DNA from: a bacterium
GTDB lineage: Bacteria; UBA8248
Assembly: GCA_965261085.1 (NCBI GenBank)
Contig: OZ253442.1
Span: 3,168,001 to 3,232,000, forward strand
Direction: 5' to 3'
Length of the DNA: 64,000 nt
The notes below the pieces were generated by a model that saw nothing but the letters and a program-made list of their open reading frames with translations, had not been told where the DNA came from and made no database searches. Positions within the stretch are counted from its first letter, which is position 1. Each line of letters starts with the position of its first letter. Shown piece by piece: positions 17,757-35,499 of the stretch. A program made the translations under genes and the position numbers.

Positions 17757-17767
17757 GTCGACTCCTC

Positions 17768-18616: not shown

Positions 18617-18619
18617 CGC

Positions 18620-19549: not shown

Positions 19550-19605
19550 GACCCTCTCCGTCCCTCCGCCTGCGGCCGCTTCCTGCGGATGAAGAACCAG
19601 GCCCT

Positions 19606-19639
19606 CCCCCGGGAGGATGAATCGACCTCCTCCCGGGGG
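19606..19639 (-). terminator. GC-rich hairpin after the binding-protein gene (attenuator or mRNA stabiliser)
   Basis: CCCCCGGGAGGA...TCCTCCCGGGGG 12-bp stem; no U-tract. Confidence 0.45.
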
Positions 19640-19675
19640 GTGCGCCTCCGCGTCCGTCTTCCGGCCACGGGCGTT

Positions 19676-20947
19676 TTACTTCAGAACCGCACTGATTTGC
19701 TTGCAGGCGTCCTGCATGGCCTGCTTGGCGCTCTTCTTCTTCTGCAGGAAGTTGATGACTTCCTGCGAGGTGGCGTCGCTGATCTCCGACGCGCGTGGAT
19801 GCTGGGCGGCGCCGCTTCCCCTGCTGAGGGCGGTCAGCCACGCCTTCGCCACCGGAAACCTCTTTAGATAGTCCGCGTTGGTGTAGACCGAACTGCGGAT
19901 GGGGCCGTTCGCCCATTGAAGGGCGCCCCGGAGTTGGTTCTTCTTGTTGCTGAGCGCCATGATGAGCTCCCAGGCCGCCGCTTTATTTTTGCTCTTCTTA
20001 TCCATGATGAGGTACCAGCCGCCGTTCAGGGTGGCGCCGCGGTTCTTCCCGTCCATCGAGGGGACGAGGAACCAGCCCAGCTTGTCGGCCGTCTTGGACT
20101 TCTTGGGGTTGGTCATCAGGCCCCAGTAGGGGGAGAAGTACACCCCCATGGCCGCGCGGCCCTGCATCATGGCTGTGCGGTATTCGTCCCGCCCCCAGGC
20201 CAGCATGTCGGGAGGGGACCAGCCGCTCTGGAAGGGTTTACCGAAGATTTCGAGCATCTTGATCGAATCGGCGCGGTCGAGCAGGCAGGTCTTGTTGTCG
20301 GCGGAGAGCACGCCGTGGCCCGTGCTGTGGAGATAGCGCAGGAAATCCTGCTCCACGTGGACGCCGGGCTTTCCGCGTTGGACGACGCCGTAGACCTTGC
20401 CGGGCTGGTTCAGCTTCTCGGCCGCGGCGAGAAACTCGTCCCAGGTTTTGGGAATCGAGACTTTGGCCGCCGCGAAGAGGTCCTTGCGGTAGTAGACGAT
20501 TCCCGTTCCCGTCCGGTAGGGAACTCCGTAGGAGGGCCCATTAGGTTTGGGAAAGCGGGTGGTCGCCGAGAGGGCGGGGATGATGTCCCCAAAGGCGTAT
20601 TCCGCCGGAGCGCTCTTGATGTATGTGTCCAGCGGTTCGAGAAAGCCGATGGTTTCGGGGTTGACCCACGCGTCCACCCAGGACACCACGTCGAACTGCC
20701 CGCCCCCGGCCGCGAAGGAAAGCACCGCTTTGTCCTTGATCTTCCCGTAGGGGGTGGTCACCACGGTCACCTTGATGCCCATTTCCTTCTCGAGGTCGGC
20801 CACGACGCCCTTCGGCCCGCCCGCCGCCTTGAACAGGGTCGGGTGGATGAGGAGGGTGACCTTCTTGGCCGCCGCGGCGGGCAGCGCGAGCCCCGCTACG
20901 AGGGCGGCCACGGCAACAAGGCACAGCCAGCGTCTGGAACGTTTCAT
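19676..20947 (-). CDS. CUT1 ABC transporter substrate-binding protein
   Basis: Signal peptide from MKRSRR after GGAGG; YYRKDLF, PKTWDEF, SKNKAAAWE. Confidence 0.9.
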   Translation of the reverse strand: MKRSRRWLCLVAVAALVAGLALPAAAAKKVTLLIHPTLFKAAGGPKGVVADLEKEMGIKVTVVTTPYGKIKDKAVLSFAAGGGQFDVVSWVDAWVNPETIGFLEPLDTYIKSAPAEYAFGDIIPALSATTRFPKPNGPSYGVPYRTGTGIVYYRKDLFAAAKVSIPKTWDEFLAAAEKLNQPGKVYGVVQRGKPGVHVEQDFLRYLHSTGHGVLSADNKTCLLDRADSIKMLEIFGKPFQSGWSPPDMLAWGRDEYRTAMMQGRAAMGVYFSPYWGLMTNPKKSKTADKLGWFLVPSMDGKNRGATLNGGWYLIMDKKSKNKAAAWELIMALSNKKNQLRGALQWANGPIRSSVYTNADYLKRFPVAKAWLTALSRGSGAAQHPRASEISDATSQEVINFLQKKKSAKQAMQDACKQISAVLK

Positions 20948-20999
20948 CGTTTTTCCTCCCTTTTCTGGGTAATCGGATGATGCGAATTCCAAGGAGCGG

Positions 21000-22385
21000 T
21001 CATACCACCGCTCCATCCTGGCGAAGCTTATCCCGCAGGGGCTCGACCGGCAGTTCGCGCGGGGTCGTCCTGCGCTCCACGCACATGGCCGCCGCCGTAC
21101 CCGCCGCCTGGCCGATGGTCATGATGTGGGCCTGGTTGCGCACGGAGCCGTTCGCGAAGCGGTCGCTCGAGACGGGCCGGCCCGCCACGAGGCAGTTCTC
21201 TATCTTCTGGGGGAGCATGACGCCGTAGGGAATGCCGTAGGACTCGCCGTCCCTGATGTGCTTGTGCTCGATCACGCCGGAGGGCTGGTGGACGTCCAGG
21301 CAATAGGCCCCCTGGCCGATGTCGCGCGGCCCCTTGCGCGCCTCGACGCAATCCTCGGTGGTGAGGGTCTCCTCACCCACGATGCGGCGCGTCTCGCGCA
21401 CCCCGATGGCCGAGGCCGAATCCATGACGTAGCACTCCTCGAAGCCGGGCGCGTATTTGCGGTAGAAATCGCGCACCTTGAATATCTGCTCGCGGCCCTC
21501 GATGGCGACCTGGTTCAGATCGTCGTTGTCGATCCCGCTGTAGCCCAGCATGCTCGTCGAGTTGATGGTGACCACGCCGGGAATGTTGGTGATGGAGAAC
21601 ACCACCCGCTGTCTGTTCGGGTGAAACTCCCCGCGCGACTGGGCGAGCTTGACCGACTCGTAATAGCCGGTGACGAGGGGGTAGTCCTTATGGGTGCGAA
21701 GCCCTGCGGCGATTTCCTCGCGGCTCTTCCCGATATAGGGGTCCTCTCCGAGCATGAAATTACGCGGGTTGGCCTTGACGTGCTGGATATGCCGGTCCAG
21801 GTCCACGTTCCCCATGCGGGAGAAGAGGCTGATGGACATCATCTGGCCCTCTTCGTTCCCGAGGTGGAAGGGCGCGCCCGCCTGCGCGGCGATGTCCGCG
21901 TCCCCGCTCGCGTCGATGACGATTTGCGCGCGGATATCACTCTCCCCGCTCTTGTTCACGATGCGCGCGCCGGCCACCCTGTCGCCATCCATGACGGGTC
22001 CGATGGTGTAGGTGTTCAGCACCAGGTCCACCCCTGCGTCCAGGCAGAGCTTCTGGTTCACGAGCTTGAGCACTTCGCCGTCCTGGGGCGTTACGGAGTA
22101 GGAGTTGCCATAAGCGTTGTGGAGGTGGCCCTCCGGAAAGGCGCCGCCCAGCCGGATGAGCTCGTCCACGATCTCCTGGGGGATGCCGTTGCAGATTTGC
22201 TCCCCCTTCATGTTGTGGAAGGTGAGGAAGTTGCCGAGAAGGCCCGCTGTCGCGTTGCCTCCCAGGAAGGCGTAGCGATCCGTGAGGACGGTGCGCGCTC
22301 CATGGCGCGCCGCGGCGATCGCGGCGCACACACCGGCCATGCCTGCTCCCACGACGAGGACGTCGACGTTGCTCCTATCGGCCAT
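21000..22385 (-). CDS. FAD-dependent oxidoreductase (FAD_oxidored-type)
   Basis: DVLVVGAGMAG, LGG, IDASGDAD, GVRETRRIVG, YGIPY, GQAAGTAAA; ATG at 22385 after AGGAG. Confidence 0.9.
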   Translation of the reverse strand: MADRSNVDVLVVGAGMAGVCAAIAAARHGARTVLTDRYAFLGGNATAGLLGNFLTFHNMKGEQICNGIPQEIVDELIRLGGAFPEGHLHNAYGNSYSVTPQDGEVLKLVNQKLCLDAGVDLVLNTYTIGPVMDGDRVAGARIVNKSGESDIRAQIVIDASGDADIAAQAGAPFHLGNEEGQMMSISLFSRMGNVDLDRHIQHVKANPRNFMLGEDPYIGKSREEIAAGLRTHKDYPLVTGYYESVKLAQSRGEFHPNRQRVVFSITNIPGVVTINSTSMLGYSGIDNDDLNQVAIEGREQIFKVRDFYRKYAPGFEECYVMDSASAIGVRETRRIVGEETLTTEDCVEARKGPRDIGQGAYCLDVHQPSGVIEHKHIRDGESYGIPYGVMLPQKIENCLVAGRPVSSDRFANGSVRNQAHIMTIGQAAGTAAAMCVERRTTPRELPVEPLRDKLRQDGAVV

Positions 22386-22470
22386 CGGTGTCTCCTTTTC
22401 TCTCCGAGTAAACCTCCGCCGGGAGGCGTTGTCAGTCTTTCGCGCGGGGTCTCCCCCCGCCGTATCCCGC

Positions 22471-23505
22471 CTAGTCCCGTATCGGCTTCGTGACCGCCCG
22501 GGTCTCGCCGTAGGTGGGGAAGAAAAGCGTGTGGCTCCCTGGCCCCCCCGCCACAGCGAGGAGAATGTTTTCCGGCCCATCCACCACCGGAACGGCCTCG
22601 GGTCCCGAGTCCGCAAAAAGCTGCGGACGCCTGCCCCGCACGCGCTCGGCGATCTCGGGTGAAAAACTCGAGAGCGGCACCCACGCTTGTTCGAAGAGCG
22701 CGCGCTGCACGTCCTCGCGGCCCATGCCGCCCGAGGCGAGGAGACCTAGGTGCTGGGGGCTGATGACGAGGAGCACCTCGCCGCCGCCCTGGGCGTTGTT
22801 CGAGCCGGGGTAGGCCATCGTGCCGGCTATCATGCGGAGCACGCTTTCTGCGCTGCCGCTCGCGTAATCGTTCACGTTCACCGGGGCGTCCGCACCCACC
22901 ACCGTCACCGCGCTTTGTTCCGCGCGAAAGCCCCGCGTCGTATGGAGCGGCTCCCAGCCGCAGGCCGCCTCGGTGAAACACGCGGAGAACTTACCCCCGT
23001 GGCCGAAAGTGGCCATGTCGGTCTCGCCGGGCACCGCCATCCCCAGCCGCACGGCGGCCAGGCGGACGGCGCGGCCGATGGTGGCGTTCGCCCTAAAGCC
23101 CGGCCCCAGGCATCCGCTCCCCGAATGCATCCCGAGCCGCTCGGCAATCGGCCCGTGGACGATCACCAAAGGGGAGGCGAGTTCGGTAGTCGCCTGGACG
23201 GCCAGGAAATTGAACTCAGGTTCCATAACGGCTTCGAGCGCCGCCAGAACCACCGGGAAGTACGCCGGCTTGCACCCCGCGATAACCGCGCAGAGGGCCG
23301 CATCTCCAACCGTCACCTCTTCCATGCCGGGCGCCATGATCCCCAGAACGTGGCCGGAACCCTCCTGCACGGCGGCGAGCATGGCGTCGACCGCTCTGCG
23401 CGTGGGGGGGATAAGGGGAAGTCCGTCGCCCGGCCCTGCCTCCATCGCGGCTTCGAGGGCGGCTTCCGCACCTGGCGGCAGTTCACTCAGCAGCGCCTCG
23501 GGCAT
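22471..23505 (-). CDS. Uncharacterised UGSC-associated 'DGLP' family protein (copy 3)
   Basis: DGLPLIPPT, AGCKP, NATIGRA, TFGHGGKF, GGPGSH; collinear with 33824..34879 and with the C-terminal domain of 23509..25116. Confidence 0.85.
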   Translation of the reverse strand: MPEALLSELPPGAEAALEAAMEAGPGDGLPLIPPTRRAVDAMLAAVQEGSGHVLGIMAPGMEEVTVGDAALCAVIAGCKPAYFPVVLAALEAVMEPEFNFLAVQATTELASPLVIVHGPIAERLGMHSGSGCLGPGFRANATIGRAVRLAAVRLGMAVPGETDMATFGHGGKFSACFTEAACGWEPLHTTRGFRAEQSAVTVVGADAPVNVNDYASGSAESVLRMIAGTMAYPGSNNAQGGGEVLLVISPQHLGLLASGGMGREDVQRALFEQAWVPLSSFSPEIAERVRGRRPQLFADSGPEAVPVVDGPENILLAVAGGPGSHTLFFPTYGETRAVTKPIRD

Positions 23506-23508
23506 GGT

Positions 23509-25116
23509 CTAGTCGATCTTCCGCGTGATGGATCGGTGGTTCAGCGCGCCCGGAGCAAGGAGGGAGTTCGGCCCCGCGCCGCCGTGCACCAAGATGGTGA
23601 TGTCGTCCTTGTCCTCGACGAAGGGCATCGTCGCGCCCTCCACCGTGTTCACTCCGTAGAGCATCTGCTTCCAGTCGCTCCAGCGCTCCCGTGATTCGGG
23701 GGGATAGGCCTGGACCGGAACCCGGTAGACCTCATAGAGGAAATCGCGCACGAGCTTCTTGTCGAACCCGGCCTCGGCGACCTTGTTCGCATGGGTGGGG
23801 CCGAAGATGAGCATGATCTCGCAGCGGCCGAACTGCGGCCGGGTGCCCGAGCAGGCGGCGACGGTCCCGAAGGTGCCCAGGATGCCTTGCGCGGTGAGCG
23901 CGCTGTGGTCGTCCACCATGTGGAGCGGTTCGGCGGTGAACACCGTCACCACGCTGTCCGTCTCGGAAAAACCCTTCTCCACGTGGAGCGGTTCCCAGGG
24001 GCTCTGCTCGACGTTCTCGGTGATGGCGTCGAAATACTTGGCGAAATGACCCTGGCATGTCGCGCCCCGGCTTTCCAGGTCGCCGATGCAGTTGAACATG
24101 ATGAGCTTGACCGCGCGGCCGATGGAGGCGTTCACCCCCCAGCCCTGCGCGCTCAAATCGCGCCCGTCGCTCATCCCGATCTCCCGGGCGATGGGGCCGC
24201 TCACCACGACGATGGGAAACAGGGTATGCGCCGTGGTGATGACGTGGTTGACGTGGTACTCCTCGGCCGCCATGGCCTGCACCGCCGTCACGAGGATGGG
24301 CATGGCTCCAGGCTTACAGCCCGCCATAATGGCGTTGGCCGCGATGCGCTCGACGGTGATGTCCGCGAGCCTCGGCATGAGGCGGGTGATGACCTCATCC
24401 CCCTTGCGGCCCGAGGCCGCCACGAACCTCTCCACCATTTCCAGGGTGGGGGGGATGATGGGCAGTCCGTCCGTCGCCCCCAGATCCAAGAGCGTTTGGT
24501 TAGCGCCGGCGGGGTCTCCGTCGATCGTGAGGACCCGCTCGATGGGGTCCTCCTCGGTCTCGGCGGCTCCTCCGTTCGCGGTGTTCATCCACTCGGCGGC
24601 CACCGAATCCACGCCGTTTTGCGCGATGCGCATCAGGGCGTCTCCGCCCTGGTGGGCCACGGAGTCATCCACGAGAAGTAGGCGGAGGTGGGGGGATTTG
24701 TAGGCGCGGGCGAAGCTGCGCGCCGCCGTCTCGAACCCGTTGCCCACCACCACGACGGTGGGGACGCCGCGTTTTTCCAGCTCGGCCGAGTCGTGGACAC
24801 TCCACGACGTGCAGCCCCCTCAGACCCCGAAGCCGGTCACCGCCACGTCGCAGTTCGAGGCGATCTCGTCCAGCGTTTCCTGCCCGGCGCCCTGGGCGGC
24901 CCAGCCCTTCTTGCGCACCAAGAGCTTCGCGTCGTGGCGCTGCGCGAAGGCTTCGCCGACGAAGTTCAGAAAATCACCCGCGTGGGGCATGCTGTTGTCG
25001 AGGAGGGCGATGCGGAGCCCGTCCAGGCCCGTCACCGTAGCGTCTGCGCGGGGGCCGTCATCCTGGGCCACGGCGGCGACGGGATTGATGATTTCGATTC
25101 GACTGTTTGCATCCAT
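23509..25116 (-). CDS. Probable selenoprotein (535 aa, Sec99, UGGC): UGSC-family domain fused to a 'DGLP' domain
   Basis: ORFs 24820..25185 and 23509..24753 are in one frame and separated only by TGA 24820-24822; read-through gives VTGFGV-U-GGCTSWSVHDSAELEKRGVPTV; SECIS-like hairpin; ATG 25116 after GGAGGGAG. Confidence 0.88.
24790..24808 (-). promoter_or_regulatory. Bacterial SECIS-like hairpin
   Basis: GUCGUGGA-GUG-UCCACGAC, perfect 8-bp stem beginning after an 11-nt spacer from the UGA; loop starts GU. Confidence 0.75.
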
Positions 25117-25204
25117 ACCCGAACTCCCTCCGAATATGCGGGGAACACGCACTCCGCTCCCTAGGGGACAGCCAGTGGTCTTCAATTTTTTTCAGATAAG
25201 GCAC

Positions 25205-25232
25205 TTTATAGCAAAATCTGATCGCATGTCAA
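25205..25232 (-). promoter_or_regulatory. Sigma70 promoter of the UGGC-fusion operon
   Basis: TTGACA-N16-TATAAA with TGn extended -10, about 90 nt upstream of ATG 25116. Confidence 0.65.
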
Positions 25233-25368
25233 TTCTTCCGGGGGTGCGTCCGATGACTGCAGCCCGCTTTCCCCAGCCGAAAATTTTCATTCGGCACGAA
25301 ACGATATCAAGGCCAGGTCAAGGAGCCAGTATTGGAGGGCGCAGCACGTCACTATAGATAAACTTTCC

Positions 25369-26499
25369 TTAAAGCAAACTGACCACCCGCTCTAGTTCTT
25401 CTTCGGTATTATAAAAATGCGGCGCAAAACGAAGAGCACTGTCGCGAGCGCTGGCGATGATTCTCTTCTCACGCAGAAGCTCCACCACCTTCCTGGGATT
25501 GGACGACTCGATGCTCACAATGGCGGCGCGCTCCTCCCAGGAACGAGGAGTCAGAATCTTCTCCCCCCGCCTCTCCAGTAACTCCATCAAATAAGTCGTC
25601 AACTGCCGTACACGCTCCTCGATGTGCTCAAGTCCCACCCCTGCAAGGAACTCGGCCGAGCGGCCAAGGACCCACAGACCCAGATAATTGGGATTTCCGA
25701 TCTCGAACCGGTGGGCATCCGGGGCCAGTCCGACTTCCATCCGGTCGAGCACTTCGCGAACCATGCTGGCGCGGGCATAGAAAGGAGGCTTCATCTCGGG
25801 AATCAAGTCTTCGCGGCAATAGAGAAAACCCGTGCCAGGCAGACCGAGCAATCCCTTGTGCCCGCCACAGACCACGATATCCGCCCCGAGGGCCGGCAAT
25901 GATGCCGAGAGGATCCCGATTCCCTGAATCGCATCCGTCATCAAAAGAATCCCGCGCTCGCGGCAGGCCGCGCTCAGGGCAGGCAGGTCTATTCGGCAAC
26001 CGGTCCCGAAAATCACGTAGGAAACCGCTACGACGCGCGTTCTCTCATCCATCAGTTCGATGAACGCCTCCGGCGGGAAGCGGCCGTCCCGATTTCGCAC
26101 CCATCGCAATTCGACGCCTCTTTCCTCGAGGCGCTTCCAGGCATACACCTGGTTCGGGTGGTCCATTTCCGTCTGGACGACGTTATCTCCCGCCTTGAGA
26201 TCCAGGGCCTGTACAGCGATGTTCAAACCCTCTGAAGTATTTTTGATGAACGCGATTGTCCGGGGCGAGACGCCCAGGAGCGAAGCCAGCGAAGAACGAA
26301 TCTCTTCCACACGGAGTTTGGAAAAAGCCCCACGAACGCCGAGTTCATTCAACTCTCGCAGGAATTCCGGAATGGCGTCCTGAGCGCACTGGGGAAGGGG
26401 CGCTTTGTTGGCGAGGTCCAGATAGGTCCAATGCTGCGTGACCGGAAATTCATTCCGGAGGGCCGTGAAATCCGGAGCAATCGCCTGTTTTTCGATCAT
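25369..26499 (-). CDS. Aminotransferase class V PLP enzyme (lyase-like)
   Basis: YLDLA..APLP, NTSEGLN, DAIQG, CGGHKGLLG, RFEIG, RFAPHFYN. Confidence 0.88.
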   Translation of the reverse strand: MIEKQAIAPDFTALRNEFPVTQHWTYLDLANKAPLPQCAQDAIPEFLRELNELGVRGAFSKLRVEEIRSSLASLLGVSPRTIAFIKNTSEGLNIAVQALDLKAGDNVVQTEMDHPNQVYAWKRLEERGVELRWVRNRDGRFPPEAFIELMDERTRVVAVSYVIFGTGCRIDLPALSAACRERGILLMTDAIQGIGILSASLPALGADIVVCGGHKGLLGLPGTGFLYCREDLIPEMKPPFYARASMVREVLDRMEVGLAPDAHRFEIGNPNYLGLWVLGRSAEFLAGVGLEHIEERVRQLTTYLMELLERRGEKILTPRSWEERAAIVSIESSNPRKVVELLREKRIIASARDSALRFAPHFYNTEEELERVVSLL

Positions 26500-26631
26500 C
26501 AGTCTTTCTCCTGTCACAAAAGTCCGGAAACCCATTTTCGCCTGCTCATTATGGATCGCGCTACGATGGGTAATTACGTTCTCAAGAATTCAGGCAACAT
26601 GCAAACACATCATCAGGCGCCGGGCGCCCGC

Positions 26632-27933: not shown

Positions 27934-28057
27934 TAAAAATCCTCCGGGAAAATCTTCTGCTTTTTTTGGATGGTACGTATTGTGCTTCCGTTTCGCCATC
28001 AAGCGTGCGAACCCAAGATCACCGGGCCTAATTTAGTGGAAAAGAAAGGCCCATTGA

Positions 28058-29083
28058 CTAAATGAGTGAACCGGCCGTGACGCCGACGCTCCCCGCAAAA
28101 TGACAGGCCACCGTGTGGCCGGGTTGGAACTCTCTCAGCACTGGCTTCTCTTCCACGCAACGCTGCTCGCTGTACGGACAACGGGTATGGAAACGGCATC
28201 CGGTCGGCGGGTCAAGGGCGGAAGGAACCTCTCCCTTGAGGATGATGCGCCGCCGCTGCCTGGCCTTCACCGGATCCGCCACCGGAGTGGCCGATAGCAG
28301 CGCCTGCGTATAAGGGTGTAATGGGGTGGTGAAGAGAGACTCAACCGCCGCAAGCTCCACGATCTCACCGAGGTACATGACCCCCACCCTGTCACAGACC
28401 GAGCGCACAACCCCCAGGTCGTGCGTGATGAAGAGGTAGGAGAGATCATGTTGCGCCTGAAGAGCTTTCATGAGGTTCAGGATCTGGGCGCGGATGGAGA
28501 TGTCGAGTGAGGAGACAGGCTCATCGGCGATCACCAGCCGGGGCTTCAGCGTGAGAGCCCGCGCGATGCCGATACGCTGACGCTGGCCGCCGCTGAGCTG
28601 GTGAGGATAGCGGTCCATGAAGATTTCGCCCGGCTCCATGCCCACCTGGTTCAGGAGATCAACGACGGTCTCATCAATCTCCCCTTTATTCACCACGTCA
28701 TGATTGAGGAAAGGCTGGCGCAGGATTGCCCGCACGGTGCGCCTGGGATTCAAGGATTCGAAGGGATCCTGAAAAATCATCTGCACTTCTCGATTGTACT
28801 GCTTGAGAGCGGGTCCTCTCAATTCCGCGACCTCTTGTTCGTCGAAGAGGATGCTTCCATCGTCGGGCTTTTCCAATTTCGCCAGCAAGCGGGCCGTCGT
28901 CGTTTTCCCGCAGCCGCTTTCACCCACCAGGGCGAACGATTCACCGGCTTTGACCGAGAAACTGATGTCGTCCACGGCGTGCACGTGGCGAGGAGGCCGG
29001 AACCATCCCCCTTCGACGGGAAAATGTTTCGTCAGCCTGCGCACTTGCAAGAGTGAATGATTCATGGAGGCGGGATCACTCAT
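28058..29083 (-). CDS. Peptide/nickel ABC ATP-binding protein (DppF-like)
   Basis: GESGCGKT, LSGGQRQR, C-terminal CRFHTRCP..C..C. Confidence 0.93.
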   Translation of the reverse strand: MSDPASMNHSLLQVRRLTKHFPVEGGWFRPPRHVHAVDDISFSVKAGESFALVGESGCGKTTTARLLAKLEKPDDGSILFDEQEVAELRGPALKQYNREVQMIFQDPFESLNPRRTVRAILRQPFLNHDVVNKGEIDETVVDLLNQVGMEPGEIFMDRYPHQLSGGQRQRIGIARALTLKPRLVIADEPVSSLDISIRAQILNLMKALQAQHDLSYLFITHDLGVVRSVCDRVGVMYLGEIVELAAVESLFTTPLHPYTQALLSATPVADPVKARQRRRIILKGEVPSALDPPTGCRFHTRCPYSEQRCVEEKPVLREFQPGHTVACHFAGSVGVTAGSLI

Positions 29084-30059
29084 AAAGCCAGCAAGCCACC
29101 ATCCGCCCCTTCCCCAAACTCAAGGAAGGCGGCGACTCTTCGCGGCAGATGTCTTTAACGTGGGGACAGCGCGGATGGAAGCGGCAACCCGACGGCATGT
29201 CTGTCGGGTTTGGCACCTGCCCTTCAATGGTTTCAAAAACCTCAACGCGCTTGTCGGGGCTGAGCGTCGAACGCAAGAGACCCACCGTATAGGGATGTTT
29301 CGGTTCGGCGAACAGGGTAAAGGTGTCGGCGTGCTCTACAATCTGGCCCGCATACATGATGTAGATTCGGTCGCAATGCTCCGCCACCAGGCCGATATCG
29401 TGGGTGATCAGGAACAGGGCGTTCTGGAGTTCCTCGCGAAGTTGGGCGAGCAGGTCCATGATTTGCGCCTGAATGGTTACATCCAGCGCCGTGGTGGGCT
29501 CATCGGCGATGAGCAGGGACGGGCGGCACGAAATGGCCATGGCGATGAGCACCCGTTGGCGCATGCCGCCGCTCAGCTGATGGGGGTAGCTATCGTAGAC
29601 CCTTTGGGGGGAAGGGATGCCGACATGATCGAATGCATCGAGCACCTGTGAGCGAGCTTCGCGTTTCGTGACCTCCTGGTGCTCCAACACCACCTCCGCC
29701 ACTTGGGCCCCGGCCCGCATGACGGGGTTCAAATAAGTCATGGGATCCTGAAAGACCATGGCGACCTCCTTTCCGCGGAGGTTGCGCATACTCGCCGCAT
29801 CCAGCGTCAGAAGATCCACGTCGTTCAACAGCACTTCGCCTGAGAGGATGCGGGCCACGACCGGCTGGAGCCGGATGATGCTGAGAGCCGTCATGGATTT
29901 CCCCGACCCCGACTCTCCAACCAGCGCAACCGCCTCCTTGCGGTTCACTTCCAGCGACACGCCGTCAACGGCTTTGATCACGCCGGCAGGGACATCGAGG
30001 TAGGTCCTCAGATCGGAGACCCGCAGGAGGCCATTTCGATTTTCCGCCTTCTTGTTCAT
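29076..30059 (-). CDS. Peptide/nickel ABC ATP-binding protein (DppD-like)
   Basis: [34 protein letters not shown]. Confidence 0.93.
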
Positions 30060-30955
30060 AGTCCGGTCCGATGAATTTCGGAAGAGCGAGGATTGAGCAC
30101 GTCGTTTAAGCCGTCTCCCAGCAGATTGAGCGTCAAGACCGAAAGAAAGATGCCCAAACCAGGATACACGGCCATCCACCACGCTTGTCGCAGAAAAGGC
30201 TGAGCTTCGTAAAGCATCCGCCCCCAGGTCACCAGGCTGGGGTCTCCCAGACCCAGATAGCTCAAACCCGCTTCCAGCAGCATCGCCTGCGCCGTTAAAA
30301 GAGAGGCATTTACGACTACAACCCCCATGGCGTTCGGCAGAATCTCACGAAAGATAATGGTCGAGCGCCTCGTCCCGATCACATGCGCGGCATCCACGAA
30401 TTGCCGTGTGCGCAGGGTCAGAAATTCCGAGCGAACGATGCGGGCCGTCACCGGCCACGTTAAAATGGAGATGGCGAAGATGATGATCCAGATGCTCGCC
30501 CCGAAGAAGGCGACGATGATCAGGGCAAGGAAGAAGCGCGGAATCACCATGAAAGTCTCGGTGAGCCTCATCAGAATGTCGTCGACCCACCCGCCCAGGT
30601 AACCGGAGATTGTGCCCACGAGAAGGCCTACGACCGTCGTGGCAAAGGCCGCCGAGAAACCGACGAAGATCGAGACCCGCCCGCCCCACAGGATTCGGCT
30701 TAAGACGTCGCGGCCGAGATTGTCGACGCCCATGAGGTTGCGGTAACTATGCCCGCCCAGCCGCGAACCCGAACCCAGGGCGTAAGGATCATAGGGCGCC
30801 AGGACGGGCGCGAATAAAACCAGTAAAACCAGCAACAACAACACGGACGCTGCGATGGGCACCGCGCGATTCTGGCTGAATGCTCCCCAGATGGCCCTCC
30901 ACTGCGGCCCTCTTTTCGAGCTTCGGTGAGCGATTGGCTTTGTTGTTGTCGTCAC
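30056..30955 (-). CDS. Peptide/nickel ABC permease (DppC-like)
   Basis: GVDNLGRD, EILPN, LSYLGLG, LLGDGL. Confidence 0.93.
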   Translation of the reverse strand: MTTTTKPIAHRSSKRGPQWRAIWGAFSQNRAVPIAASVLLLLVLLVLFAPVLAPYDPYALGSGSRLGGHSYRNLMGVDNLGRDVLSRILWGGRVSIFVGFSAAFATTVVGLLVGTISGYLGGWVDDILMRLTETFMVIPRFFLALIIVAFFGASIWIIIFAISILTWPVTARIVRSEFLTLRTRQFVDAAHVIGTRRSTIIFREILPNAMGVVVVNASLLTAQAMLLEAGLSYLGLGDPSLVTWGRMLYEAQPFLRQAWWMAVYPGLGIFLSVLTLNLLGDGLNDVLNPRSSEIHRTGL

Positions 30956-30967
30956 GGTTCCAGATTC

Positions 30968-31951
30968 CTATCCATAAGCCACACGCGGGTCAATCATGGC
31001 GTAGAGAATGTCCGTGATGAGGTTTGCAAGCACTATCATCATCGAGACGACGAGGAAGATTCCCAGAATCATCGGATAGTCCCGCGCGGTAATCGATTCG
31101 AAAATCAGCCTGCCCATGCCCGGCCACCCGAACACGGTCTCGGTGAACACCGAGCCCGCCATGACGTATGCGAAATTGATGCCGATCACGGTAACCACCG
31201 GGAGCAGCGCATTGCGCAGGGCATGCCGGTAGAGCACGCGGCGTTCGTTCAACCCCTTGGATTTCGCGGTCAGGATGAAGTCCTGCGCAAGTGTTTCCTG
31301 CATCTTGCCCCGTGTGATTCGGAATACGAGGGTCATATGATAAGTGGCGTAGGTAATGGCGGGAAGGATCAAGTGCTTCAAGACGTCAAGAACCGCAGGC
31401 CAGCCGGGCTCCACCCCGCGCATCGAATACATGCCCTGGCTCGGCAGCCAGTCCAGGTAAAGAGCGAAGAAAAGTATGAGAAGTTGACCCAGCCAGAAAA
31501 TGGGCATCGAATAGCCGGCGAGCGAAGCCAGGGTCGCCAGGTGGTCACCCACCGAATAGGAGTAACGCGATGCAATAACGCCCAGTATGACTCCCATGAC
31601 GCTGGCTATGGAGAAGGCCGTCGCCATGAGGAGCATGGTGGCCGGCAGGCGATCCAGAATAACGCCGAGTACGGGGGAGTTGTGCCAGGTGGAATAGCCC
31701 AAATCCAGATGAAGAAGCTTCCACAAATAAATTCCCATCTGGACGTGAAGAGGCTTGTCCAGGCCGAACTCAATGCGCAGTTCCTCGTATGCCTCCGGGG
31801 TGGCTTCGGTGACGCTGGCCAGGTAAATGGCCGGATCTCCCGGAGCGAGATGGATGATGGTGAAGTTGATGATGACGACCCAGAAGACAAGAGGGACAGC
31901 TTGAAGGATACGCCTTACGGTGTAACGCAGAAGCGGATGTCCACCTGCCAT
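30968..31951 (-). CDS. Peptide/nickel ABC permease (DppB-like)
   Basis: APGDP, TAKSKGL, HALRNA, ETVFGWPGMG, DPR. Confidence 0.93.
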   Translation of the reverse strand: MAGGHPLLRYTVRRILQAVPLVFWVVIINFTIIHLAPGDPAIYLASVTEATPEAYEELRIEFGLDKPLHVQMGIYLWKLLHLDLGYSTWHNSPVLGVILDRLPATMLLMATAFSIASVMGVILGVIASRYSYSVGDHLATLASLAGYSMPIFWLGQLLILFFALYLDWLPSQGMYSMRGVEPGWPAVLDVLKHLILPAITYATYHMTLVFRITRGKMQETLAQDFILTAKSKGLNERRVLYRHALRNALLPVVTVIGINFAYVMAGSVFTETVFGWPGMGRLIFESITARDYPMILGIFLVVSMMIVLANLITDILYAMIDPRVAYG

Positions 31952-31986
31952 GGATTGCCCCTCAGTGAGACGTCAAGAGACCTATA

Positions 31987-32010
31987 GGGCCCCGCCCGGA
32001 GACGGGGCCC
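31987..32010 (-). terminator. GC-rich hairpin after the binding-protein gene
   Basis: GGGCCCCG...CGGGGCCC 8-bp stem; no U-tract. Confidence 0.4.
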
Positions 32011-32036
32011 CTGCAACAGAAATTCAAATTCTAGGC

Positions 32037-33653
32037 CTACTTAAGGTAAGCGTCCTCCCGCGTACAATAAGCGCAGTAGGGACGCGTGACCACATCCGCC
32101 CATTTTGCTGAATGCGTGTGGACGAACGGCGTCTCGAACAGCGGGATCACGGGCGCGTCGGCCGCGACCATATCGGCGATCTGACGCCAAGCGGCGCCCC
32201 GCTTCTTTACGTCCTGGATCTGCCATTCGGCGTCAAGAAGACTCTGAACGCCGACGTTGATGTAGGATGGTGCATTGTTGAAGTTCGCCGAGCCGATGTT
32301 GTTTCTGTCATAGACCCGGGTCACGCTGATCTTGGGGTCCGGACCGGTGGTGAAGAACTGCATCATGATGTCGAAGTTGTGGTTGATGTACACCTTCTGC
32401 AGTGTCGCCGCCCGGTCGAAGGATTCGATCTTGATGTCGATGCCGACCTTCTTGAGTTGTTGCTTGATCACCTCGGCCGCCAATCCCTCAAAGTTGCGGC
32501 CACGAGCCCAGGTTAGCGTGAGGCCGAAGCGTTTGCCTCCTTTCATCGGGTAGCCCGCCTCATCGAGCAGCCTGTTCGCCATGGCCACGTCATGCTTGTA
32601 CTGATCAAAGCTGCCCTTGTGCGCCCACCTCATGGCAGAGTGCATGATGCCGTTCGCCACTTTCGCGGTGCCCCCGGAAGCCAGTTGGCTGATCTGGTTC
32701 TTATCCAGCGCATACGCAATCGCCTGGCGAACCTTCACGTTTCCGGTAATCGGCCGCCGGAGGTTCAAGAGCATGAAGTCGACCTGTCCTGTCGCCTCTC
32801 CCCCTTTATCTAGGACGACGAGTTTCGGGTTCTTCCTGAGACGGTCGGCCTGATCCCAGGGGACGAGGGCTGCGCGCAGATAGTCGATCTCCCCTTTCTC
32901 CAGGGCAATGAGCCGGGTGTTGGCGTCCGAGATGAACCGGATAACCAATTCATCCGCGTAGGGCTTGGGCGCGTTCCAGTAATTCGGGTTCCGCACGAGC
33001 CTGACGTGGCTTCCCTTCTTGTATTCCTTGAGCATGAAGGGCCCCGTTCCTACGGGTTTCTTGCTCCACGGAGCGTTCAGGAACGCCTTGCGGCTGCCCA
33101 CATGATCCTTCCAGAGATGCTTGGGGTAGATGGCGGGTCCACCGAAGATCACGCCCATAACCGTGAGCAACGGGGCGAAAGGCTTCTTGAGGCGCACGAC
33201 GACGGTGTACTTGTCCGGCGCTTCCACCTTCTCCGCCACCGGCTTCCAGAAAACGCGCGACCGGGGATTGTACGGGAGGCACTTCTCCAGCGAGAACTTG
33301 ACGTCCTCGCTCGTCATCTCCTTGCCGTCATGGAACTTCACGCCCTTTCGGAGGTGGAAAATGAGCGTTTTCCCTCCGTCTTTGACCTCCCAGGACTTCG
33401 CCAATTCCGGCTTCGGATTGAGATTGAAGTCGAGGGTGATCAGCTTGTTGTAGATGTTGACGGCCGGCACCTGGACCGTGGTGCCCGGTTTGACGATCAG
33501 GTTGAAGTGCCCCGGGTCGGCTTCCAGGCCGATAACCAGCGTGCCTCCCCGCTTCTGTGCCCATGCGACCCCTTGAACCTGGCCGAGGGCAAGCAACGCC
33601 GCGAGAACAAAGAAAATAGCGACGCTTCCAAATCGGATCTTATTCCGTTCCAT
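32037..33653 (-). CDS. Family 5 ABC substrate-binding protein (DppA/NikA-like) with C-terminal CxxC
   Basis: Signal peptide from MERNK, PELAKSW, LRKGVKFHDG, GTGPF, ends RPYCAYCTREDAYLK. Confidence 0.92.
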   Translation of the reverse strand: MERNKIRFGSVAIFFVLAALLALGQVQGVAWAQKRGGTLVIGLEADPGHFNLIVKPGTTVQVPAVNIYNKLITLDFNLNPKPELAKSWEVKDGGKTLIFHLRKGVKFHDGKEMTSEDVKFSLEKCLPYNPRSRVFWKPVAEKVEAPDKYTVVVRLKKPFAPLLTVMGVIFGGPAIYPKHLWKDHVGSRKAFLNAPWSKKPVGTGPFMLKEYKKGSHVRLVRNPNYWNAPKPYADELVIRFISDANTRLIALEKGEIDYLRAALVPWDQADRLRKNPKLVVLDKGGEATGQVDFMLLNLRRPITGNVKVRQAIAYALDKNQISQLASGGTAKVANGIMHSAMRWAHKGSFDQYKHDVAMANRLLDEAGYPMKGGKRFGLTLTWARGRNFEGLAAEVIKQQLKKVGIDIKIESFDRAATLQKVYINHNFDIMMQFFTTGPDPKISVTRVYDRNNIGSANFNNAPSYINVGVQSLLDAEWQIQDVKKRGAAWRQIADMVAADAPVIPLFETPFVHTHSAKWADVVTRPYCAYCTREDAYLK

Positions 33654-33823
33654 TGCTCTTCCCTCCAAAATGATGGATTGACACCAACACCCCTGTATGG
33701 AACGGGATGTTGCGCCGCAATGTCCTATCACCCCCGGCATTGAACCCCCGCCATTCGGCAAGGGCTCAATTATCGGGTCCGATAGGGTGTTGACTCCGTT
33801 CCTCTCCCGAGTCCGACTCACGT

Positions 33824-34879
33824 TCAGTCGGTGAAAGAAAATTCAATCTTGCGCGTAACGCTATGCGTGGTTCCGAATGTCGGGATGACGAGGCTATGCT
33901 TCCCGAGACCTCCTGCGACGAACAGGCAGATGCTCTCCTCATCGTCGACGACGGGAATGCTCTCCAGGTCTTCTCTGGCGAAGAGTTCGCCTCGGCGCCC
34001 CCGCGCCCGTTCGAGGTTCGCCGGCGCAAAGAAAGACGTTGGCACCCTGCCCCTCTCATAAAGGAAAGCCCGGATTCGCGGTGGATCCCAGCCGTCGCGA
34101 ACAAACATGTCGACGTGTTCGGGGCCGAGAATGACCACCATCTCCCCGCCGAAAAGCGCGTTGTTGCTCCCCGCCTGCATCATCGACGAGGCGATGGATT
34201 GAAGCACTCCCTCGCCCTCCGTGCTGCTCGCGTCGTTGACCATAATATGCGGGTCGATGGCGATAACCGTCACGGCGCTGTCCGAACGCTCGAGGCCGCG
34301 CTCGACGTGGAGCGGCGGCCACGGGCTCGCCTCTTCGTTTTCGCCGATACAGCTTGAAAACTTGCCCTGGTGGCCGAAGGTGCTGCGATCGGTGTCGCCC
34401 GGTATGGCGCCCCCGATGTTTTGCAGGATGAACCGGAATGCCCTGCCGATGGTGGCGTTGGCCCGCCAACCCTGGCCGAAGAGGTTTTCCTTGCAATTGA
34501 TTCCCAGCGCGTGGCGAGCGGGCCCGTGGACAACGATGAGCTGCGCGATACAGTTCGTGGTCCCCTGAACTCCCGGGAGGTTGTAAATGGGGTCAAAGAT
34601 GGCATTGACGGCGGTAATGAGGATAGGCATGTACTCGGGCTTACAGCCCGCCATGGCGGCGTTGATGGCGATCTTCTCGATCGTGGCGTCGCCGAAGAGG
34701 TGGGGGATGCGTCCATGGGACTCCGGGGGTGGCCGCCCCGAAGCCTCCACCATGTTTGCCACCAGCTCTTCGGTGGGCGGGATGACGGGCATTCCATCTC
34801 CCCAGCCCTGTTGCATTATGTATTCAAGCAGTTCCAGGGGGGAGTCCGCCACCTCGTGGCGCTTGGAGGTCAGTTTCAT
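33824..34879 (-). CDS. Uncharacterised UGSC-associated 'DGLP' family protein (copy 1)
   Basis: DGMPVIPPT, NAAMAGCKP, NATIGRA, TFGHQGKF, ENEEASPW, GGLGKHS; start overlaps the upstream stop (ATGA). Confidence 0.87.
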   Translation of the reverse strand: MKLTSKRHEVADSPLELLEYIMQQGWGDGMPVIPPTEELVANMVEASGRPPPESHGRIPHLFGDATIEKIAINAAMAGCKPEYMPILITAVNAIFDPIYNLPGVQGTTNCIAQLIVVHGPARHALGINCKENLFGQGWRANATIGRAFRFILQNIGGAIPGDTDRSTFGHQGKFSSCIGENEEASPWPPLHVERGLERSDSAVTVIAIDPHIMVNDASSTEGEGVLQSIASSMMQAGSNNALFGGEMVVILGPEHVDMFVRDGWDPPRIRAFLYERGRVPTSFFAPANLERARGRRGELFAREDLESIPVVDDEESICLFVAGGLGKHSLVIPTFGTTHSVTRKIEFSFTD

Positions 34880-35433
34880 TCTTTGTCTTCCGGAGGTGGC
34901 GTCACTGTAAGAGACTTCGCGACGCTTTCCAGTATCTGGTCCGCGTGGGTATGCACCGTATCGATCGGGATTCCAGTGATGGGGTGGGGGATCGAGACCA
35001 TGGGGAGGTCCGCAAAACCCAAGGCCCCCGCCTTCTTGCGACCAAAGGCCTCGAACATATCCGTGATGATGGTGAGAGTGGGTATCCCGCGCTGTTCCAG
35101 CTTAATCGCGTCGTGGATACTCCACGGCGTGCAAGACCCTCAGTCGGGCACCGCGTTCACCACGAAGTCGCACTCACTGGCCATCCGTTCGACCAGATCC
35201 TCCTCCAGGGGGAGCGCGCTGCCTCCCTTGCGGTAGTGAGTGAACGAGCCGATAGGAAATTTCCCGCGCAACCGCTCCTCCAACCGGCGGAGCAGCTTGT
35301 CGGAGTTGGGTTTCGTGTTGTCGAGAAGCCCGAGGCGAATTCCCTCAAGCAAGGCGGGCCGGGCGGCCGGCCGCACCTTTTCAATCAAAGGGGGTATTCC
35401 CGAGGGATCGAGGATCACCAAAGTCTTCCCCAA
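34876..35433 (-). CDS. Probable UGSC-family selenoprotein (185 aa, Sec98)
   Basis: ORFs 35140..35433 and 34876..35058 are in one frame and separated only by TGA 35140-35142; read-through gives [27 protein letters not shown]...IPHPITG; SECIS-like hairpin; TTG start after GGAGGAG. Confidence 0.9.
35110..35128 (-). promoter_or_regulatory. Bacterial SECIS-like hairpin
   Basis: GCCGUGGA-GUA-UCCACGAC (7 of 8 pairs) after an 11-nt spacer from the UGA; loop starts GU. Confidence 0.72.
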
Positions 35434-35499
35434 AAAAGACTCCTCCCCAACAAATACGTGGATTCGCGCTCAACTTGGTTTGCACTTATTAAAGCAAGA

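Follow-up and report, generated by a model that had tools for sequence, protein, structure and literature searches.

UGSC selenoproteins and the unnamed DGLP family as candidate halves of one widespread thiol/selenol-dependent reductase

Introduction

Selenoproteins of the UGSC family, first listed by metagenome selenoproteome surveys, have ranked among the most abundant families of aquatic selenoproteins since 2005–2008. The family is named in both Pfam (PF24696) and NCBIfam (NF041046) and has no assigned function, as the first-pass annotation of the present locus had stated; a 2026 review still keeps it among the uncharacterised ones (PMC13188914). UGSC has been grouped with redox proteins of thioredoxin-like fold (PMC2398784, PMC13188914), the fold being a suggestion of the authors of the earlier work (PMC2398784). 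Which reaction such a small selenoprotein serves, and with which partner, is the question raised by a 64,000-nt stretch of a bacterial contig (OZ253442.1; hereafter, the window), in which two UGSC genes occur in consecutive operons, each together with members of a second family, DGLP, and an ABC importer.

Organisation of the locus

Both operons lie on the minus strand (−), and open reading frames together with Pfam and NCBIfam profile matches returned the gene content that the first-pass annotation had given for them. Operon A starts with the selenoprotein gene UGSC-A (34876..35433; Sec TGA 35140–35142, stop TGA 34876–34878), which is initiated by a TTG at 35433, seven nucleotides 3′ of the ribosome-binding site GGAGGAG. 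It is followed by DGLP-A (33824..34879; 351 aa, no named family), the start of which overlaps the UGSC-A stop (ATGA), and by a Dpp/Opp-type importer (DppABCDF; 28058..33821), recognised from an SBP_bac_5 binding protein (32037–33821), two BPD_transp_1 permeases (30968–31951, 30056–30955), and two ABC_tran/oligo_HPY ATPases (29076–30182, 28058–29083) in a row; none of the NCBIfam equivalog cut-offs was reached by this importer. The operon further encodes an M20 (ArgE/DapE-type) metallohydrolase (26632..28002; TIGR01910, 217.1 bits, cut-off 217.6) and a class-V PLP enzyme (25369..26535; Aminotran_5), which comes closest to the named families SufS and selenocysteine lyase without reaching any of their cut-offs.

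Operon B comprises a UGGC-DGLP fusion gene (23509..25116; 535 aa, Sec TGA 24820–24822), a stand-alone paralogue of the DGLP family, DGLP-B2 (22471..23505; 344 aa), an FAD-dependent oxidoreductase (21000..22385; PF12831, 2.6e-108), and a CUT1-type importer (16680..21016). The latter consists of an SBP_bac_1 binding protein (19676–21016), two BPD_transp_1 permeases (18620–19549, 17768–18616), and a MalK/UgpC-type ATPase with OB/TOBE domains (16680–17756; NF008653, 467 bits against a cut-off of 432). While the genes listed for operon B in the first-pass annotation were all found, the boundary set there was too narrow, since both permeases, the ATPase and a terminator-like hairpin (16548..16567, about 110 nt 3′ of the ATPase stop) lie beyond it.

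A TTGACA promoter had been claimed for each operon. Both hexamers are present (35555–35560 and 25227–25232), and a usable −10 element accompanies only the second, in a promoter-like site (25203..25232, −) within the 250-nt gap that precedes operon B, where an 18-nt spacer leads to TAAAGT (10 of 12 matches). Given this single −10 element and a count of six promoter-like sites, close to the 4.3 ± 1.9 of shuffled sequences, the promoters of operons A and B are only plausible. Contigs from RNA libraries end at 25176 and 25169, close to the promoter-like site of operon B, which is a weak hint.

Selenocysteine decoding

UGSC-A carries the motif D-U-G-S-C-T around its in-frame TGA and scores above both family models (PF24696, 1e-51, 175.9 bits, cut-off 25; NF041046, 148.5 bits, cut-off 125). 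In the fusion protein, a UGSC domain (approximately residues 8–176) with the motif V-U-G-G-C-T precedes a DGLP domain that begins at about residue 215; this UGSC domain exceeds the Pfam cut-off (1.6e-37, 129.8 bits against 25) and stays below that of the NCBIfam equivalog model (97.5 bits against 125).

Downstream of both TGA codons, a SECIS-type hairpin is found: that of UGSC-A (35110..35128, −) has eight base pairs and a 3-nt loop and begins 12 nt 3′ of the UGA, and that of the fusion gene (24790..24808, −) was recognised from fold and covariation. Across 78 genes, 89.3% of cells are paired, six of the eight pairs change on both sides (e.g., pair 21–27, which is GC in 44 genes and CG in 33), and the observed covariation score was matched by none of 500 shuffles; no match to an Rfam family reached the gathering threshold. 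The host genome encodes tRNA-Sec and SelA, each of its eight UGSC genes has one in-frame TGA, and a TGA occupies the Sec position in 75 of 76 full UGSC genes. RNA-library contigs from all four runs (two studies) span the TGA in both Sec genes of the window. Because of the in-frame TGAs, the decoding machinery, the covarying hairpin and the RNA coverage across the TGA, both UGSC genes of the window are real selenoproteins with their Sec decoding signals. The preference is mirrored in the GOS survey, which gives 255 Sec forms versus 21 Cys forms of UGSC (PMC2398784).

DGLP, the partner of UGSC

DGLP proteins are about 345 aa long and share the motifs W-x-DGLP-V-x-PPT, A-M-A-G-C-x-P-E-Y and R-A-N-A-T-I-G-R-A, with the Cys of the second (C79) being nearly invariant. 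At E ≤ 1e-10, the family comprises 5,487 clusters at 50% identity; even so, neither a match nor a characterised function was found for it in Pfam, NCBIfam or PDB sequences, and 60 members scanned against Pfam showed no similarity to peroxidases or Msr. With several thousand clusters, the family merits its own Pfam model. The main text of the 2008 survey (PMC2398784) records a “UGSC/Unknown_1” fusion, and this Unknown_1 is likely DGLP.

The module is duplicated within the window in the sense that its parts are paralogous; the duplication is an ancient one, with the two UGSC copies being 28% identical and DGLP-A sharing 38–42% identity with the two copies of operon B. The genome as a whole holds 15 DGLP genes, seven of which are without a UGSC gene of their own, and seven of its eight UGSC genes are fused to DGLP or at most 131 nt away from it, the eighth being separated by 2.6 kb from four DGLP genes in tandem.

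The co-occurrence expected by the first-pass annotation extends well beyond this genome. UGSC adjoins DGLP on the same strand, in either order, in 75 of 80 DGLP-centred loci from many phyla, a set that consists of the nearest relatives of the query (40–48% identity) and may over-represent a UGSC-paired subfamily. Among the best 146 DGLP cluster representatives, 56 contain UGSC. Seen from the other side, DGLP lies within about 1 kb of 20 of the 23 UGSC matches in five unrelated genomes, and only three matches, all in a fragmented assembly and two of them at contig ends, are without it. In the phylum of the window, 43 of 51 genomes contain both families, as do 113 of 121 in an alphaproteobacterial order, so that the 172 genomes of the two lineages divide into 156 with both, 16 with neither and none with one alone, counts which, coming from related genomes, stand for only a few independent acquisitions or losses. 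Between neighbouring UGSC and DGLP proteins, pairwise identities are correlated across 80 pairs (r = 0.86; maximum of 500 permutations, 0.09); the eight paralogue pairs of the host genome showed no significant mirroring (r = 0.38, reached or exceeded in 3563 of 40320 permutations).

Fusion and active-site conservation complete this picture. All five long UGSC proteins are UGSC-DGLP fusions, and the reversed order exists as well (P0218). The putative active-site residues, i.e., the U/C of UGSC, the Cys three residues on and the DGLP Cys, are all kept in 120 of 130 pairs. Where the U/C is retained (124 pairs), the DGLP Cys is lost in only two (L086 and P0170, which keep U..C), and where the U/C is lost (six pairs), the DGLP Cys is gone as well in four, a correlated loss that amounts to at least two but few independent events, since P0209–P0211 are related; two pairs have U..S and lack the resolving Cys. 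UGSC is, thus, all but inseparable from DGLP, and co-inheritance, linkage and frequent fusion bear out the notion of a reusable two-component module.

Relation to glycine and proline reductase

A resemblance to the Sec region of GrdB/PrdB, pointed out in the first-pass annotation, holds at the level of profiles. With an alignment of 34 GrdB/PrdB sequences from one phylum only, hhalign placed UGSC on their Sec region with a probability of 95.5% (P = 1.3e-8, 94 columns, Sec on Sec), and full-length GrdB was matched at columns 342–428 (95.7%, P = 1e-8); “LE..GIPT” falls on “LE..GIPTV” and “HP” on “HPFG”. The controls gave P = 0.17 (reversed), 0.31 (DGLP) and 0.018 (GrdE). These comparisons support homology of the UGSC Sec region with that of GrdB/PrdB, while the UGSC proteins had no match to the Pfam GRDB family (PF07355) at E ≤ 0.01. 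For DGLP, the second domain proposed for such a comparison, no kinship emerged, with hhalign rating it unrelated to GrdE (P = 0.51) and without similarity to the N-terminal half of GrdB (P = 0.024). The window is free of grdA and grdE, as had been noted, the only matches to PF09338 and PF04723 being at 1.20 Mb and 2.15 Mb of the genome, beyond the window; two GrdA-GrdE-GrdB clusters are present elsewhere in the host genome.

Redox fusions and genomic contexts of DGLP

Among 87 long forms of DGLP, 28 are fused to a low-Mr flavoprotein of the thioredoxin reductase (TrxR) type, with the redox motif CAVCD or CADCD in the four sequences examined. Other members are fused to an AhpC-TSA/Redoxin domain with a CATC motif (P0313) or to the catalytic chain of ferredoxin:thioredoxin reductase (FTR-beta; P0318), and Atlas clusters with the DGLP fold include ones named TlpA or thioredoxin. 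These fusions to TrxR, AhpC/Trx-like domains and the FTR catalytic chain suggest that DGLP accepts reducing power of the disulfide type, delivered via a thiol/selenol relay into its conserved Cys. In 7 of 80 loci, a TrxR-like gene immediately precedes UGSC-DGLP, and no TrxR-type gene was found beside the eight modules of the host genome.

The neighbours of UGSC-DGLP modules include CoA-transferase III, acyl-CoA dehydrogenases, enoyl-CoA hydratases, LLM enzymes, TctC proteins and amidohydrolases. Rarer fusions join DGLP to an AMP-binding domain (P0163) or UGSC-DGLP to rhodanese (P0169), and some Bacteroidales fusions (P0174) are equipped with both a signal peptide and a T9SS sorting domain.

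Proposed function

We propose, with a probability of roughly one half, that UGSC and DGLP are two halves of one widespread thiol/selenol-dependent reductase, in which DGLP is the core and UGSC the reductant. DGLP would be the catalytic core with Cys79 and a fold without a name, and UGSC a small domain acting as its private selenol reductant. The selenolate would attack the oxidised or substrate-loaded Cys79, the Cys three residues after Sec would resolve the adduct under formation of a Se–S bond, and the general thioredoxin system would re-reduce the latter. Module A would be wired to the Dpp importer, the M20 enzyme and the class-V PLP enzyme, and module B to the CUT1 importer and the flavoprotein; because each sits with an importer and tailoring enzymes, each may perform a single reduction during the degradation of some small molecule taken up by the cell. 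In this scheme, we infer the course of electron flow, the part played by Cys79, a reductive chemistry and the substrates, and we read the relay from gene fusions.

The first-pass annotation had let the Sec protein do the chemistry and DGLP set the specificity. The sequence data suggest the reverse, with DGLP as the catalytic part and UGSC as its dedicated selenol reductant, because DGLP is alternatively fused with TrxR, with an AhpC/Trx-like domain or with FTR-beta, and because it occurs without a UGSC of its own, while UGSC is hardly seen without DGLP. Some observations speak against this reading, namely, that the GrdB/PrdB homology equally favours UGSC as the catalytic part, that signal peptide and T9SS fusions (P0174) are hard to square with a cytoplasmic thioredoxin supply, and that TrxR-type genes are lacking at the eight modules of the host.

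The division of labour might also resemble that of Stickland enzymes, close to the scheme of the first-pass annotation, a possibility that we regard as less likely. DGLP would hold and activate the substrate, the UGSC selenolate would attack one of the substrate carbons and cleave a C–N, C–S or C–O bond, and the Cys three residues on would free the product via Se–S formation; DGLP would, thus, be a functional analogue, not a homologue, of PrdA/GrdE and might replace the pyruvoyl group by a thioester or some other activating group, as the acyl-CoA enzymes in the neighbourhood would allow. The Sec-on-Sec homology with GrdB/PrdB, the strong preference of Sec over Cys (TGA in 75/76 genes; 255 versus 21, PMC2398784), the AMP-binding-DGLP fusion and the spread of paralogous modules over varied catabolic contexts, as for substrate-specific reductases, are in line with it, and the TrxR and FTR fusions would equally fit re-reduction of a Se–S bond. 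However, DGLP resembles neither GrdE (P = 0.51) nor the N-terminal half of GrdB (P = 0.024), UGSC does not match Pfam GRDB at E ≤ 0.01, and DGLP occurs without UGSC or with a generic AhpC/Trx-like CxxC domain instead, a free swapping that is not expected of a specialised, substrate-attacking domain.

A role without net reduction, be it sulfur/selenium trafficking (persulfide/perselenide) or redox-neutral acid-base catalysis by Cys/Sec (isomerase, epimerase, lyase), is improbable. It could draw on the rhodanese fusion, the SufS/selenocysteine-lyase-like PLP enzyme of operon A and a carboxymuconolactone-decarboxylase/AhpD-like gene (recognised by eye) adjoining one orphan DGLP; however, the rhodanese fusion is a single cluster whose DGLP lacks the Cys, a desulfurase-like neighbour exists at only one of the eight host modules, and the TrxR, Trx-like and FTR-beta fusions point to net electron input. 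General antioxidant defence or protein repair (peroxidase or sulfoxide-reductase type), with the genes scattered among catabolic operons, is very improbable, for although UxxC motifs and AhpC-TSA/TlpA fusions are typical of it and the published grouping with Trx-like-fold redox proteins (PMC2398784, PMC13188914) agrees with it, the 15 DGLP and eight UGSC paralogues, 25–45% identical and each set among transporters and catabolic enzymes in a different operon, fit substrate-specific enzymes rather than housekeeping defence, and peroxidase or Msr similarity was absent from 60 DGLP members scanned with Pfam.

Significance

With a nearly inseparable partner, redox fusions and kinship to GrdB/PrdB, the question of UGSC function becomes testable. 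The results name the pair to study, its key residues (Sec, the Cys three on and DGLP Cys79) and the likely electron donor, and the ligands of the operon-encoded binding proteins should point to the substrates. It is unlikely, yet worth stating, that a novel-fold catalytic partner has taken on a Sec domain of the PrdB/GrdB type for a Stickland-like reductive removal of alpha- or beta-substituents (N, S, O, halogen), acting, under the same low estimate, on diverse imported acids or CoA thioesters and not on a pyruvoyl Schiff base. If this were true, the host, with its eight modules and 15 DGLP genes, would possess a whole battery of reductive cleavage enzymes. UGSC-DGLP ranges from Proteobacteria to Chloroflexota, Bacillota and Bacteroidota, with at least 5,487 clusters at 50% identity, and catabolism, beside antioxidant defence, may account for the selenium demand of many bacteria from soil, groundwater and freshwater.

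Comparison with known systems

Within the UGSC family, the window proteins share the U-G-S/G-C motif, the length and the SECIS hairpin, while the second copy differs in being fused and in falling below the NCBIfam equivalog cut-off.

In GrdB/PrdB, the Sec attacks the substrate itself. UGSC is like these proteins (PF07355) in that the homology spans the strand before Sec to the C-terminus, in the U-x-x-C/T motif followed by LE-x-x-GIPT and HP-x-G, and in having a larger second subunit encoded next door, but it is without the N-terminal half of GrdB. DGLP, on the other hand, is unrelated to GrdE/PrdA, and the pyruvoyl proprotein (PF09338) is absent from the UGSC-DGLP loci in the window.

The relays from Trx, TrxR and FTR to terminal reductases (e.g., Msr, PAPS reductase and peroxiredoxins) are comparable in that DGLP is likewise fused to redox donors and that UGSC, as Trx-type carriers do, has a UxxC-type redox motif (U-G-S-C or U-G-G-C in 120 of 130 pairs, Cys forms included). 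They differ in that DGLP is unlike the known terminal reductases and in that UGSC is not detectably thioredoxin by sequence, its best hit among PDB sequences (E = 0.062) being unrelated and no match.

Two Sec-dependent gene runs and their surroundings

The two consecutive minus-strand runs of genes described in the first-pass annotation are borne out in content. Run A (35433 down to 25369, −) opens with the stand-alone selenoprotein gene UGSC-A (34876–35433, −; 185 codons), whose in-frame TGA at 35140–35142 is read as selenocysteine (Sec), and continues with DGLP-A (33824–34879, −; 351 aa), whose ATG overlaps the stop of UGSC-A; its 3' part comprises a five-gene Dpp/Opp-type ABC importer, an M20 hydrolase and a class-V PLP enzyme (all −). 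Run B (25116 down to 16680, −), separated from run A by a 250-nt gap, starts with a UGGC-DGLP fusion (23509–25116, −; 535 codons) with the TGA at 24820–24822 in the context ...GFGV-U-G-G-C-TSWSVHD..., the C-terminal 320 residues of which are a paralogue of the 351-aa DGLP-A. It is followed by DGLP-B2 (22471–23505, −; 344 aa), a further stand-alone paralogue, and closed by a PF12831 flavoprotein and a complete CUT1-type ABC importer (−). The extent first given for run B was correct through the binding protein, but two permeases and a MalK/UgpC-type ATPase also belong to it. Likewise, TTGACA elements do lie upstream of both runs, but a reasonable −10 element is present only before run B, and the promoter scan as a whole gave no excess over shuffled sequence.

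Logan contigs from RNA libraries (four runs, two studies) span the TGA codons of both Sec genes, e.g., 34586–35440 over UGSC-A and 24183–25176 across the Sec codon of the fusion, while 31975–34570 covers DppA and DGLP-A; because the data are assembled contigs, which report presence and bridging and not transcript ends, strand or level, this cover shows presence only. Cover is nearly absent at 35456–36100 and low at 25496–28151; neither is counted as evidence.

Directly upstream of UGSC-A lies an M24 creatinase/prolidase-like gene (35781–37148, −), whose best NCBIfam matches, ectoine hydrolase and Xaa-Pro dipeptidase, are weak, and beyond it a divergent threonine-synthase-like PALP enzyme (37184–38335, +); both may act in the same pathway as run A. 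Just downstream of run B, on the opposite strand, an open reading frame (15689–16501, +) starting with MARFAFDFVPLPEERSMEKPRTSGITMMIDKG presumably resembles phosphosulfolactate synthase (ComA).

UGSC selenoproteins and their kinship to selenoprotein B

Both Sec genes encode real selenoproteins of the named family UGSC. The products match the Pfam family PF24696 "UGSC" (1e-51 for UGSC-A, 1.6e-37 for the fusion); UGSC-A also passes the NCBIfam equivalog NF041046, with the fusion remaining below its cut-off (97.5 vs. 125 bits). The source genome, a single contig of 4.27 Mb, contains tRNA-Sec and SelA together with eight UGSC genes, each of which has a single TGA. A hairpin of 8 bp, with a loop of 3 nt, starts 12 nt downstream of this codon. 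Over a set of 78 UGSC genes drawn from many phyla, 89.3% of cells pair; both sides vary in six of the eight pairs, and one pair occurs as G-C in 44 genes but as C-G in 33. The observed covariation was reached in none of 500 shuffles, and the signal was lost when the partner columns were slid; the support for the hairpin is this covariation, given that the single-sequence folding z-scores of the two hairpin regions are weak (−1.5). The loop G and U are conserved at >90%, a trait shared with the E. coli fdhF SECIS. At the gathering threshold, no SECIS family of Rfam matches here.

The first-pass annotation had likened the U-x-x-C-T...LE-RGIPT...IPHP region of UGSC to that of selenoprotein B, and profile comparison confirms this. 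With 84 UGSC sequences set against 34 GrdB/PrdB C-terminal regions from the phylum of the source genome, hhalign returned a probability of 95.5% (P=1.3e-8) over 94 columns with Sec on Sec; against full-length GrdB the probability was 95.7%, aligned to columns 342–428. The controls gave P=0.17 for the reversed alignment, P=0.31 for DGLP and P=0.018 for GrdE, and the resemblance is therefore one of homology of the Sec-bearing region. The Pfam GRDB model itself is not matched by UGSC, which is therefore related to this family without belonging to it. A comparison of UGSC with PDB sequences gave nothing meaningful.

DGLP, a very large unnamed family

For the 345-aa DGLP protein, Pfam, NCBIfam and PDB sequences all came up empty, and no characterised function of the family was found there. 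Sixty members scanned singly at E≤5 pointed to no consistent family, and the best hit of the DGLP profile among PDB sequences (E 0.45) was to HisF, by chance. For a member with 76% identity, a confident model is available in the ESM Atlas (pTM 0.92), whose structural neighbours are members of the DGLP family only. Among 8,000 candidates scored, 6,879 clusters at 90% identity belong to DGLP; a profile search run exhaustively over 1.84 billion representatives yielded 8,354, 5,487 and 2,621 clusters at 50% identity for E≤1e-3, 1e-10 and 1e-30, respectively.

Members share the N-terminal motif W-x-D-G-L-P-V-x-P-P-T and A-x-N-A-V-M-A-G-C-x-P-E-Y, the cysteine of which (Cys79) is retained in >90%, as well as G-P, R-A-N-A-T-I-G-R-A, E-N-E-E-x-S-P-W and a C-terminal G-G-x-G. 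A profile comparison with Grd proteins had been suggested for DGLP, too; here no relationship emerged. Descent from GrdE/PrdA was rejected (hhalign vs. GrdE P=0.51), as was the idea that DGLP represents an N-terminal half of GrdB encoded separately after a gene split (vs. full-length GrdB P=0.024), and an internal duplication was rejected as well (N-terminal vs. C-terminal half P=0.11).

The source genome carries 15 DGLP copies. Four paralogues stand in tandem in one locus (L003:4334-8538; genome 654334–658541), beside which a divergently oriented molybdenum-hydroxylase large subunit is found, followed by UGSC, two enoyl-CoA hydratases and an acyl-CoA dehydrogenase.

Near-obligate pairing of UGSC and DGLP

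Seven of the eight UGSC genes of the source genome are fused to DGLP or lie ≤131 nt from one; the eighth is separated by 2.6 kb from four DGLP genes in tandem. Among the best 80 of 593 DGLP loci, with one genome per species, UGSC stands beside DGLP on the same strand, upstream or downstream, in 75; the 80 loci come from groups including Delta-, Beta- and Alphaproteobacteria, Dehalococcoidia, Methylomirabilota/Rokubacteria, Binatia, Acidobacteriota, Actinomycetota, a Bacillota isolate and Entotheonella. Two of the five loci in this set that lack UGSC are at contig ends, and the three with full flanks (L059, L062, L121) show no obvious Trx or TrxR gene among their neighbours. In L059 (9290-12627), 800-aa and 312-aa proteins follow DGLP which, by eye, look like a glycyl-radical enzyme and an activase. 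Viewed from UGSC, DGLP lies within ~1 kb of 20 of 23 matches in five unrelated genomes, the remaining three all belonging to one fragmented assembly. The reusable two-component module of the first-pass annotation is real.

The two families co-occur in 43 of 51 genomes of the window's own small phylum and in 113 of 121 genomes of an alphaproteobacterial order, neither set holding a genome with one family alone; because the genomes are kin, these counts represent few independent events. Pairwise identities of neighbouring UGSC and DGLP correlate with r=0.86 over 80 pairs (maximum of 500 permutations 0.09); therefore, the two have been inherited as a unit. Inside the source genome, the mirror-tree test with eight pairs was not significant (r=0.38, equalled or exceeded in 3563 of 40320 permutations).

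Fusion is frequent: 56 of the best 146 DGLP representatives carry UGSC, 35 of them represented by the post-Sec piece because gene callers restart after TGA. All five long proteins found from a UGSC query are UGSC-DGLP fusions, and a further representative (P0218), truncated at the Sec codon, has the two domains the other way round. Alphaproteobacterial operons (L085, L096, L097, L099, L103, L108, L109, L122) consist of a TrxR-like gene, UGSC, DGLP and a second DGLP-like gene that is shorter (~270 aa) and weaker (195–250 bits).

Alternative fusions of DGLP and a proposed electron relay

The range of fusion partners of DGLP weighs most for the mechanism. DGLP also occurs in the absence of UGSC, and no partner other than DGLP was ever seen for UGSC. 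A low-Mr TrxR-type flavoprotein is C-terminal to DGLP in 28 of 87 long forms, its redox motif (CAVCD or CADCD) being intact in all four such fusions read; P0313 carries an N-terminal AhpC-TSA/Redoxin domain with C-A-T-C, and in P0318 the ferredoxin:thioredoxin reductase (FTR) catalytic beta chain is fused to DGLP. Atlas clusters with the DGLP fold have been auto-named TlpA or thioredoxin, and a TrxR-like gene directly precedes UGSC-DGLP in 7 of the best 80 of 593 loci. Thus, four different disulfide-reducing modules are found beside DGLP. Other architectures comprise an AMP-binding domain joined to DGLP (P0163), a partial UGSC with a rhodanese domain joined to a DGLP without the Cys (P0169), and a protein with an unnamed 195-aa N-terminal domain that itself ends in C-D-C (P0262).

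The U/C position of UGSC, the Cys three residues on and Cys79 of DGLP are all kept in 120 of 130 fused or adjacent pairs. Cys79 is lost in 4 of 6 pairs without the UGSC site vs. 2 of 124 retaining it, counts that reflect few independent events because P0209–P0211 are related.

We propose, with a probability of about one half, that DGLP is the catalytic subunit of a relay in which NAD(P)H or ferredoxin would feed electrons to a Trx system, which would pass them to UGSC (Se-S) and, from there, via Cys79 of DGLP to the substrate. The main rival follows the logic of GrdB/PrdB, with the UGSC selenolate itself attacking a substrate held by DGLP. This comes close to the first-pass annotation, in which DGLP sets specificity; the kinship of UGSC with GrdB/PrdB on which it draws is real, but the fusions favour DGLP as the core, and we consider selenolate attack the less likely of the two. 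Both the relay and selenolate attack predict a reductase and differ in the atom that touches the substrate.

A set of gut/Bacteroidales-type proteins (P0171–P0208; e.g., P0174, 701 aa) combines a signal-like N-terminal segment, a UGSC domain in Cys form (C-G-I/L-C-T), DGLP and a long C-terminal extension. One member is named "T9SS type A sorting domain-containing protein" by its source, which would put the module outside the cytoplasm.

Genomic contexts

Module A keeps company with a peptide-type importer, an M20 deacylase-type hydrolase and a SufS/kynureninase-like PLP enzyme, module B with a sugar-type importer and a flavoprotein. The other six modules of the source genome adjoin CoA-transferase III (2 loci), acyl-CoA dehydrogenases (2), enoyl-CoA hydratases (2), luciferase-like oxidoreductases and a molybdenum hydroxylase. 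In the best 80 of 593 DGLP loci, the neighbours found most often are TctC receptors (17), LLM (12) and ECH (10), followed by SDR-like (9, by eye), NHL (8), TrxR-like (7), CoA-transferase III (7) and MmgE/PrpD (6). A housekeeping antioxidant fits less well than substrate-specific enzymes, because there are many old paralogues (25–45% identity), each in its own catabolic operon.

Comparison with known systems

The UGSC family itself is known, and so is a UGSC fusion, noticed in 2008: the available part of that survey mentions "UGSC/Unknown_1" (PMC2398784). What appears to be new is that UGSC pairs almost obligately with an unnamed family of very large size, that DGLP is alternatively fused to TrxR, Trx and FTR modules, and that UGSC is linked to selenoprotein B at profile level. 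The available portions of PMC2398784, PMC1976440, PMC13188914 and PMC9312934 assign no function to UGSC, state no homology with GrdB/PrdB and contain neither the UGSC-DGLP pairing nor the TrxR/Trx/FTR fusions; pairing, alternative fusions and selenoprotein B link were equally absent from the accessible text of the literature searched on UGSC selenoproteins, PrdB and GrdB.

Five PF07355 proteins are encoded in the source genome, two GrdB-like and three short PrdB-like. The latter (G000:C1:813395-813787, 320133-320534 and 505350-505658 of the source contig) are selenoproteins with P-V-U-P-L-C or P-A-U-G-L-C; no PF09338 partner for them is found in the source genome, and, like UGSC, they may rely on some other partner. 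Outside the window, at 1.20 and 2.15 Mb (G000:C1:1202842-1207121 and 2149655-2153159), lie two canonical GrdA(Sec)-GrdE-GrdB(Sec) clusters. The GrdB-like copies read ...AT-U-G-T-G-T-R-S...LEREAIPTVIV...HHPFGDP, and GrdB of these two clusters, with A-T-U-G-T/S-G-T, has no Cys three residues after Sec; relatives in the phylum read U-G-T-C-T or U-G-T-S-T.
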